From Escherichia coli 042 (GTDB taxonomy: Bacteria; Pseudomonadota; Gammaproteobacteria; Enterobacterales; Enterobacteriaceae): a stretch of 64,000 bases of DNA. A program made the position numbers and the translations under genes. Position 1 is the first letter of the stretch, and each line of letters starts with the position of its first letter. Shown piece after piece: positions 20,734-46,611 of this stretch. The stretch lies in the NCBI RefSeq assembly GCF_000027125.1, contig NC_017626.1. One strand, written 5' to 3'. Below the pieces are notes generated by a model. That model was not told where the DNA came from. It was given only the letters and a program-made list of their open reading frames with translations, and searched no databases.

Positions 20734-20754
20734 TGCAATAATGATATTAAATAC

Positions 20755-20781
20755 GCGTCTTTGACCCCGAAGCCTGGCTTC
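20755..20781 (+). terminator. Rho-independent terminator (ccccgaagcc / gcttcgggg stem, then T6)
   Basis: Perfect GC-rich hairpin followed by TTTTTT directly after ygaM. Also abuts the 3' end of the convergent MocR-type gene. Confidence 0.8.
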
Positions 20782-20789
20782 GGGGTTTT

Positions 20790-22124
20790 TTAGCTTAAGG
20801 CTTTACGTAATTGTTGTGCTACCTGTCGCGCCATACCTTCGTTAACGATATTAGTAAACGAGAGCAGTAATCCACCTTCCCCACTTGAACGGATACGCCA
20901 GTCGCTAAGTGCCTGCACCGCAAGGCCTGCAGCATTGGCTTTACGCGCATGGGCAATATCATCGCCTATCATTCTGATCACCATCTGGATACCACCTTTC
21001 TGCGGCACAACCTGAAATCCTTGCTGCGTCAACGCTTGCTCAATCCATTGCCGACGTTGAGCATAATGCTGACGCATTTTCTTCAGATGCCGCCAGAAAT
21101 GCCCCTCGCGAAGAAAGTCTGCCAGTGTGTTCTGCCATAGAACAGGTACCGCACATGGAGCCAGTGACGCCTGGTGGCGGAATTGTGCAATTTGCTTCAC
21201 CGGCAACACCAGCCACGCACAGCGCAATGCAGGAAATAGCGCTTTGCTGAATGTTCCGGCATAAATTACCCGCTGCGGTGCGTCGAGACTTTTTAACGCC
21301 GGTAACGGCTTACCGTGATAGCGAAACTCACTGTCATAATCATCTTCAATAATCCATGCCTGACTACGATCTGCCCATTCCAGTATCTGATGCCTGCGCG
21401 CTAAAGAGAGCGCCACACCCAGCGGACTTTGGTGTGCTGGTGTTATCAGGGCAAAACGCGCATCAGGATAATTTTGTATTCCGCTTGTGATATCCAGTCC
21501 ATTGTCATCAACCGGCACAGGCAAAATTTCCACATCATGGCGAGTGACAATCGGGCGAATCAGTGGAAAGCCGGGATCTTCTATCCACATCCCGTTTCCC
21601 GGTTTCGCCAGCGCGTGCAGAATTAAAGCTATTGAGGCCGCATAACCGTGAGTGATAAAGACCTGCTCTGGCTGACAATCAATCCCACGTGAAACGCGTA
21701 AGTAATCAACTATTGCCTCGCGCAACGCCACCTCACCGCAGACATCGCCTAACGCCAAATCAAAGCGCGTCTGGGTACGAAGGCGACGCCCCATCACCCG
21801 CGCCCACAGCTCTCGCGGAAAGAGATCGAGTGCGGGTAATCCCATTTGAAATGGCAACGGTTGCTGACTTTCACCGGCAAAAGCTAAAACTTGTACAGTA
21901 GATTGTTGCGGATATATCCGCTCACTGACAAATGTGCCAGCCTGTCCCCGCCTGATCAGCCATCCTTGCGCCACCAGCTCAGCATACGCATTTTCGACAG
22001 TGGATCGAGACACCCCCAGCTCCTGCGACCAGGTACGACTTGAAGGCAGCCTTGCGCCGGGTTTCAGTTCCCCTTGCTCAATAGCCGTTTTTAACTGACG
22101 GGCGATATCCTGATAGCGCGGCAT
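20790..22124 (-). CDS. MocR/GabR-family regulator (GntR-type wHTH fused to a PLP-dependent aminotransferase-like domain)
   Basis: N-terminal HTH (SRTWSQELGVSRSTVENAYAELVAQGWL) and a C-terminal fold-type-I domain with the PLP-lysine motif GTFSKALFPALR. Not in the K-12 order ygaM-nrdH as I recall it. Confidence 0.8.
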   Translation of the reverse strand: MPRYQDIARQLKTAIEQGELKPGARLPSSRTWSQELGVSRSTVENAYAELVAQGWLIRRGQAGTFVSERIYPQQSTVQVLAFAGESQQPLPFQMGLPALDLFPRELWARVMGRRLRTQTRFDLALGDVCGEVALREAIVDYLRVSRGIDCQPEQVFITHGYAASIALILHALAKPGNGMWIEDPGFPLIRPIVTRHDVEILPVPVDDNGLDITSGIQNYPDARFALITPAHQSPLGVALSLARRHQILEWADRSQAWIIEDDYDSEFRYHGKPLPALKSLDAPQRVIYAGTFSKALFPALRCAWLVLPVKQIAQFRHQASLAPCAVPVLWQNTLADFLREGHFWRHLKKMRQHYAQRRQWIEQALTQQGFQVVPQKGGIQMVIRMIGDDIAHARKANAAGLAVQALSDWRIRSSGEGGLLLSFTNIVNEGMARQVAQQLRKALS

Positions 22125-22211
22125 ATGGTCTGCTTTTTTAGGTAATTTATGGCTCTCTTTAGCAGTCCATTATAGTGCTACATTGCGGGCGTTAATAAGA
22201 GGAGAAACTGT

Positions 22212-22643
22212 ATGACTACATTACGTCAGCCTTACTACGAACTTAGCCCGGCAGTGTATAACGCACTAGTGCAGGCCAAAACGGCACTGGAAAATAGCAC
22301 GCTGGATACCACGTTGATGGAGTTAGTTTATTTGCGCGTCTCGCAAATCAACGGCTGCGCATTTTGTCTGGAGATGCACAGCAAAGCATTGCGCAAATCC
22401 GGCGTGCCACAGCACAAACTGGACGCCCTGGCAGGTTGGCGCGTAAGCCATCATTTTGATGAACGCGAGCGGGCGGCGCTGGCATGGGCGGAATCGGTAA
22501 CCGAAATTGCCAGAACCCATGCGGAAGACGAGGTTTATCAGCCTTTGCTTGAGCATTTCAGCGCAGCAGAGATCAGCGACTTAACGTTTGCCATCGGGCT
22601 GATGAATTGTTTTAACCGTCTGGCCGTTTCCATGCGGATGTAA
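22212..22643 (+). CDS. Carboxymuconolactone-decarboxylase family / AhpD-like protein
   Basis: 143 aa with a CxxCxxxH motif (GCAFCLEMH) as in the AhpD core; divergent from the MocR-type gene. GAGG upstream of the ATG. Confidence 0.75.
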   Translation: MTTLRQPYYELSPAVYNALVQAKTALENSTLDTTLMELVYLRVSQINGCAFCLEMHSKALRKSGVPQHKLDALAGWRVSHHFDERERAALAWAESVTEIARTHAEDEVYQPLLEHFSAAEISDLTFAIGLMNCFNRLAVSMRM

Positions 22644-22851
22644 CTTCTTGATGCCGGGTATTCGCCCGGCAAAAAAACACAAAATCCCCTACCCCGTTGA
22701 GCCATTCATCGGTGGCGTAATCAATCTAAAATTCCCATATCTTGTATGGTTGAATCTTTTTTCAACTACATCTAGTATCTCTGTATCAACAGAGATACAA
22801 CCCGACGCGTATCATCGCGCCGTATCTTCATTTTAAACGGAAATACGAATC

Positions 22852-23097
22852 ATGCGCATTACTATTTACACTCGTAACGATTGCGTTCAGTGCCACGCCA
22901 CCAAACGGGCGATGGAAAACCGGGGCTTTGATTTTGAAATGATTAATGTCGATCGCGTTCCTGAAGCGGCAGAAGCGCTGCGTGCTCAGGGCTTTCGTCA
23001 GTTGCCGGTTGTGATTGCAGGCGATCTTAGCTGGTCTGGTTTCCGTCCGGACATGATTAACCGTCTGCATCCAGCGCCACACGCGGCCAGTGCATGA
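22852..23097 (+). CDS. nrdH: Glutaredoxin-like protein NrdH
   Basis: 81 aa; CVQC redox motif; followed by nrdIEF. Confidence 0.93.
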
Positions 23098-44972: not shown

Positions 44973-46113
<1,141 letters not shown>

Positions 46114-46611
46114 TCAAGTGTTTTGTAGAAATTGTTGCCACAAGGTCTGCAATGCATACGCAGTAGCCTGACGACGTACCGCATCACGGTCACCGCTGAA
46201 GCATTCCCGCCGGGTAATGCCTTCACCACGGGCAGTGGCAAAAGCAAACCAGACGGTGCCGACAGGCTTCTCTTCACTGCCGCCATCCGGCCCGGCGATA
46301 CCACTAATAGACACAGCATAATCAGCACGAGCCGCTTTCAGTGCGCCTATCGCCATTTCCACCACGACAGGCTCGCTCACCGCGCCATGCTGCGCCAGCG
46401 TCTCTTCACGTACGCCGATCATTTGCGCTTTGGCTTCGTTACTGTAGGTGACAAATCCGCGTTCAAACCAGGCGGAACTGCCGGCAATATCGGTAATCAC
46501 TTTCGCTACCCAACCGCCGGTACAAGACTCAGCAGTTGTTACGGTTGCGCCACGGGCTTTCAGCGCCTGCCCAACCTGTTCGCTTAACTGCATCAGTTCA
46601 CTGTCAGTCAT
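46114..46611 (-). CDS. pncC: NMN amidohydrolase PncC (CinA-like C-terminal domain)
   Basis: MTDSELMQLSEQVGQALKARGATVTTAESCTGGW...; 165 aa. Confidence 0.92.
   Translation of the reverse strand: MTDSELMQLSEQVGQALKARGATVTTAESCTGGWVAKVITDIAGSSAWFERGFVTYSNEAKAQMIGVREETLAQHGAVSEPVVVEMAIGALKAARADYAVSISGIAGPDGGSEEKPVGTVWFAFATARGEGITRRECFSGDRDAVRRQATAYALQTLWQQFLQNT

Follow-up and report, generated by a model that had tools for sequence, protein, structure and literature searches.

Two inverted repeats in the nrdHIEF promoter of an Escherichia coli strain and their relation to the NrdR, IscR and Fur sites

In this work we have analysed two inverted repeats located upstream of nrdH in a 64-kb stretch of E. 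coli DNA (the window, to whose numbering all positions refer). The reading that we consider quite probable as a whole is that both repeats lie in the known nrdHIEF promoter with its overlapping NrdR, IscR and Fur operators, the first one (palindrome 1) being an incidental symmetry and the second one (palindrome 2) most likely not being an operator. Positions 22644–22851 are in fact the well-studied E. coli promoter of this class Ib ribonucleotide reductase operon, a sigma-70 promoter. The sequence-only reading from which we started had placed the region upstream of nrdH under the control of NrdR, Fur and IscR and had proposed the two repeats as candidate operators; the control by the three regulators holds and genuine operator DNA underlies the first repeat, but neither symmetry is likely to be an operator of its own. 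The finding is therefore ordinary, as the operators were already known and palindrome 2 is a lineage-specific sequence without a supported function.

The nrdHIEF locus, its alleles and its promoter

The 22600–22900 region is 99.7% identical to many E. coli chromosomes, the matched features being nrdH and a carboxymuconolactone decarboxylase family gene. In the window nrdH starts at 22852 and is followed by nrdI, nrdE, nrdF and proV. From 22750 to the nrdH ATG the sequence is identical to that of K-12 save at 22796, with a strong divergence of the two alleles further upstream. The boundary of this divergence is located at NrdR box 1 and the -35 hexamer; box 1 and the upstream region with a mapped Fur peak consequently differ between the E. 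coli alleles. CFT073, which also has T at 22796, is closer to the window, since between 22672 and the nrdH start the sole difference is at 22746. With respect to K-12, the 20790–22750 segment is a presence/absence polymorphism: a gene for a MocR-like regulator and the decarboxylase family gene lie here between ygaM and nrdH, and K-12 is devoid of both. CFT073 and Salmonella also have the decarboxylase family gene before nrdH, and the window-type upstream sequence is found in about 1063–1387 of ~5420 E. coli genomes. We have also collected the nrdH loci of 80 Enterobacteriaceae species representatives and aligned their upstream regions (82 sequences), and the conservation values given below refer to this alignment. 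The features of the region are the following (strand given where one applies):

22700–22734, stretch to which the MG1655 Fur ChIP-exo peak P87, the upstream one, maps (PMC10164565 supplement); the window allele differs from K-12 here
22729–22753, probable IscR type II site, AAAT-TCCCA-TATCTTG-TATGG-TTGA, with its core at 22733–22749 and its right half TATGG at 22745–22749
22732–22747, NrdR box 1, TTCCCATATCTTGTAT, from its alignment to the published K-12 box TTGCTATATATTGTGT
22735–22749, palindrome 1, CCATA-tcttg-TATGG, with 5-nt arms and a 5-nt gap; it comprises NrdR box 1 positions 4–16 and a conserved GG
22748–22762, NrdR linker of 15 bp, from the alignment to the published K-12 oligonucleotide
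22750–22755, + strand, putative -35 hexamer TTGAAT, from the consensus; inside the NrdR linker
22763–22778, NrdR box 2, CAACTACATCTAGTAT, identical to the published K-12 box 2; it holds the -10 hexamer
22773–22778, + strand, putative -10 hexamer TAGTAT, within NrdR box 2
22775–22798, palindrome 2, GTATCTCTGT-atca-ACAGAGATAC, with arms at 22775–22784 and 22789–22798 that are 100% complementary and a 4-nt gap
22803–22822, + strand, GC-rich stem-loop CGACGCG-tatcat-CGCGCCG in the nrdH 5' UTR, conserved across Enterobacteriaceae
22839–22879, + strand, ribosome-binding and start region, GGAAATACGAATCATG, near-invariant; it overlaps the downstream Fur ChIP-exo peaks

Regarding the promoter elements, the TTGAA of the proposed -35 hexamer is 90–100% conserved in the 82 sequences and lies 17 bp from TAGTAT. 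The TTGAAT/TAGTAT pair matches at just 8 of 12 positions and was not called by a promoter scan. Because the -10 hexamer would be at 22773–22778, transcription is expected to start near 22785, in the loop of palindrome 2, and the nrdH leader, which we take to be 67 nt long, agrees with such a start. These three assignments (-35, -10 and start site) are all putative ones, read from the promoter sequence. The scan called an alternative promoter, TCAACA-18-TATCAT at 22786–22815, which we have rejected as both of its hexamers fall in species-variable columns. A small inverted repeat, GTTGA-N8-TCAAC (22749–22766), extends from the -35 hexamer into the first bases of NrdR box 2 and is not conserved in other genera.

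NrdR, probable IscR and Fur sites around the first repeat

NrdR binding to the K-12 nrdHIEF promoter has been described on a 57-mer oligonucleotide, ACTAT-TTGCTATATATTGTGT-GGTTGAATCTTTTTT-CAACTACATCTAGTAT-CTCTG, in which a 15-bp linker separates the two 16-bp boxes and 5 nt flank them on either side. E. coli NrdR binds to it with a KD of 138 nM in the presence of ATP plus dATP; the boxes overlap the polymerase site (PMC12176259; Rozman Grinberg et al. 2025). According to a mutational study, positions C4, A6, A8, T9, T11 and G13 of the boxes are highly conserved, and C4/G13 and A6/T11 matter for binding (bioRxiv 10.64898/2026.05.11.724285). Both window boxes carry all six of these bases. In the alignment of 82 sequences from 80 species representatives, conservation is 95–100% at the six key positions of box 1 and 90–100% over 22764–22778, in box 2. 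Furthermore, the NrdR core pair that starts at 22735 and 22766 is the sole pair with a spacing of 31–32 bp in the 64-kb window, in which 0.007 are expected. The features by which an NrdR operator is recognized, namely the key positions, a linker of 15–16 bp, the overlap with the promoter of a ribonucleotide reductase operon and the conservation in orthologs, are all found here. The K-12 nrdHIEF box pair itself was reportedly described by Rodionov and Gelfand in 2005 and by Torrents and coworkers (Torrents et al.) in 2007.

The window pair is like the K-12 pair in its locus, in the succession of a 16-bp box, a 15-bp linker and a 16-bp box, in the identity of box 2 and of the linker, and in its overlap with the -35 and -10 hexamers. 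Unlike K-12, it has the box 1 allele TTCCCATATCTTGTAT instead of TTGCTATATATTGTGT, which differ at positions 3, 5, 10 and 15, none of them reported to be critical. This non-K-12 allele keeps every critical position, and we consider the site a predicted NrdR operator, the KD given above belonging to the K-12 allele only. The window box 1 allele, as part of a 60-mer, was present in 1063 of 5426 E. coli genomes, and this form of box 1 is also that of Salmonella, Citrobacter and Enterobacter. The NrdR tetramer loaded with ATP plus dATP, for which repression has been shown in the literature, would occupy the boxes at 22732–22747 and 22763–22778, and the bound protein would occlude RNA polymerase, since one promoter hexamer (-35) is within the linker and the other (-10) within box 2.

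The same DNA probably holds an IscR site as well. It has been described that IscR activates nrdHIEF from a type II site with an embedded -35, and that type II sites are formed by symmetric CCxYA half-sites with AT-rich flanks (PMC8561392). The site at 22729–22753, whose coordinates are probable ones obtained from a consensus match, agrees with the pattern at 7 of 8 positions of the core and at 14 of 16 of the extended pattern, and it is among the 10 best 25-mers of the 64-kb window, in which 62 positions reach 7/8 on the core, so that the match does not decide the matter by itself. The N7 spacing applied in this pattern is that of the hyaA site. With the type II sites of hyaA, sufA and ydiU (CCxYA-N7-TRxGG) agree the right half TATGG of the window site, the Y and the A of its left half, its AT-rich flanks and its abutting -35, given that TATGG (22745–22749) is directly followed by TTGAAT (22750–22755), as is characteristic of an IscR-activated promoter. 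Unlike the type II consensus, the left half begins with T instead of C (TCCCA here, TGCTA in K-12). In the 82 sequences 22736 is always a pyrimidine, 22746 is always a purine, and the GG at 22748–22749, which is outside NrdR box 1, is 95–99% conserved. The conservation of Y, R and GG exceeds what NrdR requires and supports the presence of an IscR site in these promoters. Apo-IscR would probably activate from the core at 22733–22749, with its right half next to the -35 hexamer.

Both repeats noticed in the sequence-only reading are present, although the first one is at 22735–22749 and not at 22736–22750. It had been left there unassigned; in fact it lies inside the published NrdR box 1 (PMC12176259) and shares its right arm, the TRxGG half, with the probable IscR type II site. 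Palindrome 1 is an incidental symmetry that results from the overlapping NrdR and IscR sites. Its axis, at 22742, differs from those of the NrdR (22739/22740) and IscR (22741) sites, its spacer is of 5 bp versus 7 bp in the IscR register, and its arm positions do not covary across the 82 sequences. We give hardly any credit to the alternative that CCATA-N5-TATGG is itself recognized by some regulator other than NrdR and IscR. It is true that CCCATATCTTGTATGG is identical in many genera and that the five pairs are all complementary in 37 of the 82 sequences, but each conserved base can be assigned to an NrdR key position, to the IscR half-site pattern or to the -35 hexamer. Moreover, the two arms change independently of each other, with C or T at 22736 opposite an unchanging G at 22748 and with A or G at 22746 opposite an unchanging T at 22738, and K-12, whose control by NrdR and IscR is documented, has just three of the five pairs on this axis. 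Five-base arms are also expected by chance, as Markov simulations gave 3.0 ± 2.3 repeats with arms of at least 5 nt and gaps of 0–12 nt per 208-nt intergenic region. The palindrome 1 motif, with at most one mismatch, is not enriched in the window either (3 found versus 1.5 expected).

Fur binding in this region is known from ChIP-exo, with peaks P87, P88 and P89 in MG1655 and P106 in CFT073 (PMC10164565). When mapped to the window, P88 corresponds to 22850–22879, P89 to 22860–22868 and the CFT073 peak P106 to 22853–22865, and none of the peaks published for these two strains falls on 22735–22749 or 22775–22798. For the conversion of the MG1655 peaks we assumed an offset of +1978 between genome versions. 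Peaks are found on the nrdH start codon in both MG1655 and CFT073, and the nrdH peak is intragenic in the other seven strains. According to the published ChIP-exo data, Fur would flank the NrdR/IscR core, at about 22700–22734 and at the nrdH start codon. The best match to the Fur 19-mer GATAATGATAATCATTATC in 22700–22851, both palindromes included, is 10/19, which is the background level (419 window positions reach at least 11/19), and just upstream none of the 80 species exceeds 12/19 to the Fur consensus. We have therefore rejected a Fur operator for either palindrome, on the basis of matches of at most 10/19, of the lack of a conserved upstream site and of the location of the peaks elsewhere. 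A Fur-related 8-mer taken from PMC3458845 is located at 22716–22723.

A Fur-like 19-mer (13/19) is present directly after ygaM, at 20737–20755 (1480–1498 in the K-12 locus, L001). This sequence is ~240 bp upstream of nrdH in K-12, and a published PnrdH cloning primer starts within it; here the two additional genes place this 19-mer ~2.1 kb away from nrdH.

The second repeat at the putative transcription start

The second repeat had been placed at 22777–22796, a correct position for what is really a larger element, as the 10-nt arms extend it to 22775–22798. It spans the -10 element, the putative start (about 22785) and the first 14 transcribed bases. As single-stranded DNA it would fold with -9.2 kcal/mol (z = -7.0; 0 of 200 shuffled sequences were as stable), which is beyond chance locally. 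In a 64-kb stretch ~1.1 perfect repeats with arms of at least 10 nt are expected and the window contains 12 matches, nested registers of one palindrome being counted separately; the others look like terminator-type GC-rich hairpins and one LexA-box-like site. Within palindrome 2 only GTAT (22775–22778) is conserved, because it is the end of NrdR box 2 and of the -10 hexamer, and the G residues at 22783, 22792 and 22794 are present in 12–17% of the sequences. Outside Escherichia 0–8 of the 10 arm pairs are complementary, mostly 4–5, and no perfect repeat longer than 4 bp was found in this stretch in the non-Escherichia species; over the 80 species 41% of the alignment cells pair. All sampled Escherichia representatives do have an inverted repeat, with 7–10 of 10 pairs in the E. 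coli register (8 of 10 in E. whittamii).

The repeat is also variable inside E. coli. It is the T at 22796 that makes palindrome 2 perfect, an allele shared with CFT073. The exact window 60-mer with the perfect palindrome was present in 128 of 5302 matching E. coli genomes, including Nissle 1917; the K-12 form, in which G at 22796 leaves nine of the ten pairs, was present in 4841 of 5421. Among six sampled variant genomes three carried A22793T and one C22779T, both core-breaking changes, one carried the perfecting G22796T, and one had a non-critical change in NrdR box 2. At this place E. albertii (L006) has another perfect palindrome with 10-nt arms, TATCTCTCTG-gtaa-CAGAGAGATA. It is displaced by 1 bp with respect to that of E. 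coli, and a cluster of five substitutions leads to it in promoters that are almost identical elsewhere.

The reading that we find most likely is that palindrome 2 is a functionless quasi-palindrome, a TC/GA-rich sequence around the start site that is confined to Escherichia. Template-switch correction of quasi-palindromes is a known mutational process of E. coli that can make palindromes perfect without selection. Sites of quasi-palindrome mutation in this organism have reportedly been treated in the Ripley model and in studies from the Lovett laboratory. The window resembles such sites, as a single G to T at 22796, which could be templated by the A at 22777, would turn the K-12 form with 9 of 10 pairs into a perfect repeat, a type of change expected from the correction of imperfect inverted repeats by template switch. 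The cluster of changes in E. albertii, which yields another perfect palindrome, is also a likeness; unlike quasi-palindrome sites, two of its five changes are in the loop, where a template switch does not explain them. Selection for complementarity could have produced this second perfect palindrome, although recurrent template-switch correction would give the same outcome. We favour the neutral reading because of the arm-breaking alleles of E. coli and of the 8 of 10 pairs of E. whittamii. By our estimate it is rather improbable, all possibilities added together, that a functional operator or structure exists at palindrome 2.

One such possibility is that palindrome 2 is the operator of a dimeric regulator restricted to Escherichia, or an extra site of a known one, which would block nrdHIEF initiation over the -10/+1 region. 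The perfect 10-nt arms, the position, typical for repressors, and the presence of the repeat in all the sampled Escherichia representatives would fit with it. However, we consider it very unlikely, as the repeat is not conserved beyond Escherichia, in contrast to the invariant NrdR/-10 block next to it, both the arm sequence and the axis are altered in E. albertii, which a protein that reads bases would not tolerate, and the arm-breaking alleles of E. coli are at least as common as the perfect one. Furthermore, palindrome 2 matches none of the Fur, NrdR, IscR and LexA patterns, its motif does not recur in the 64-kb window, and the Fur ChIP-exo peak of CFT073 is ~70 bp away. The earlier proposal of the second repeat as a candidate operator is thus not sustained, given the 0–8 of 10 pairs found beyond Escherichia and the missing match to the three regulators. 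The sequence of palindrome 2 was not found in print in the literature that could be searched.

We have also rejected two particular versions of the operator. A third NrdR box would need the C.A.AT.T.G core, which palindrome 2 does not contain. It does contain a CTGT...ACAG inverted repeat like that of a LexA box, but with a spacer of 4 bp (CTGT-N4-ACAG) instead of 8 (CTGT-N8-ACAG). The perfect palindrome ATACTGTATGCTCATACAGTAT at 46093–46114 has the CTGT-N8-ACAG form of LexA and is presumably the recA operator.

The other possibility is that palindrome 2 has been kept for a hairpin or cruciform, formed in the melting promoter DNA or in a read-through RNA, that would tune initiation, pausing or transcript stability. 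We see only a slim chance for this. In its favour, E. coli and E. albertii share the complementarity and not the sequence, the hairpin predicted for the single strand is a strong one, and the hairpin at 22652–22671, after the upstream gene, is followed by an A-run and not by a T-run, which makes read-through into nrdH conceivable. Against it, the putative start (about 22785) is in the loop and the nrdH mRNA would consequently not include the left arm, the fold of the 5' UTR is no more stable than that of shuffled sequences (z = -1.15) and belongs to no Rfam family, and across the 80 species pairing is limited to the 41% of cells given above. Moreover, E. whittamii has just eight of the ten pairs, core-broken E. 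coli alleles are common, and templated mutation can perfect palindromes with no need of selection. An RNA element at palindrome 2 has also been rejected, since to the absence of an Rfam match and the z value of the UTR fold are added the absence of a consensus structure from RNAalifold and of support from covariation.

The wider proposal that palindrome 2 is an Escherichia-only structure-forming element, kept for its complementarity and either modulating nrdHIEF initiation or read-through or recruiting an undescribed regulator, is likewise improbable in our opinion. If the structure-forming reading were true, a functional variant would be represented by the infrequent perfect allele with T at 22796, which CFT073 and Nissle 1917 carry.

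Some other observations concern the sequences next to palindrome 2. The hairpin 22652–22671, TGCCGGGTATTCGCCCGGCA, located after the decarboxylase family gene and followed by an A-run, is unlike a canonical terminator, and read-through from there towards nrdH is possible. In 22775–22826 there are four copies of GTATC on the + strand (22775, 22783, 22809 and 22822) and one GATAC (22794, in this allele only), and the sequences CGTATCATC and CGTATCTTC repeat 13 nt apart. This whole pattern is confined to Escherichia. A downstream GUAUC is the predicted pairing partner of the 5' AGAGAUAC in the leader fold.

Conserved leader elements and meaning for nrdHIEF control

The leader contains a stem-loop that is conserved beyond the genus, at 22803–22822, whose arm columns are 83–98% conserved in the 82 sequences and in which 77% of the cells pair. 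Compensatory changes are few: CG to UA, CG to GC, and an A-U in place of the A.C mismatch of E. coli in 8 species; two Citrobacter have CGATG...CATCG. A U-rich tract follows the stem-loop in Salmonella and Citrobacter. We have rejected a leader terminator at this place, as the scan made no call on the + strand in either E. coli or Salmonella. RNAalifold predicted no structure for 22803–22822 and no Rfam family matched it, and to the best of our knowledge no function has been described for this stem-loop. Downstream of it, 22839–22851 is 93–100% conserved in the 82 sequences, far above the rest of the leader. In 68% of the species there is an in-frame ATG 15 nt upstream of the nrdH start, which is ACG in E. 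coli.

The outcome of this analysis is a base-level map of the action of NrdR, IscR and Fur on the nrdHIEF promoter of this strain, in which the perfect form of palindrome 2 corresponds to a minority allele that shows no sign of conservation. Should palindrome 2 nevertheless be functional, it would represent a genus-specific layer of control on the back-up (manganese-dependent) ribonucleotide reductase that is used under iron starvation and oxidative stress.
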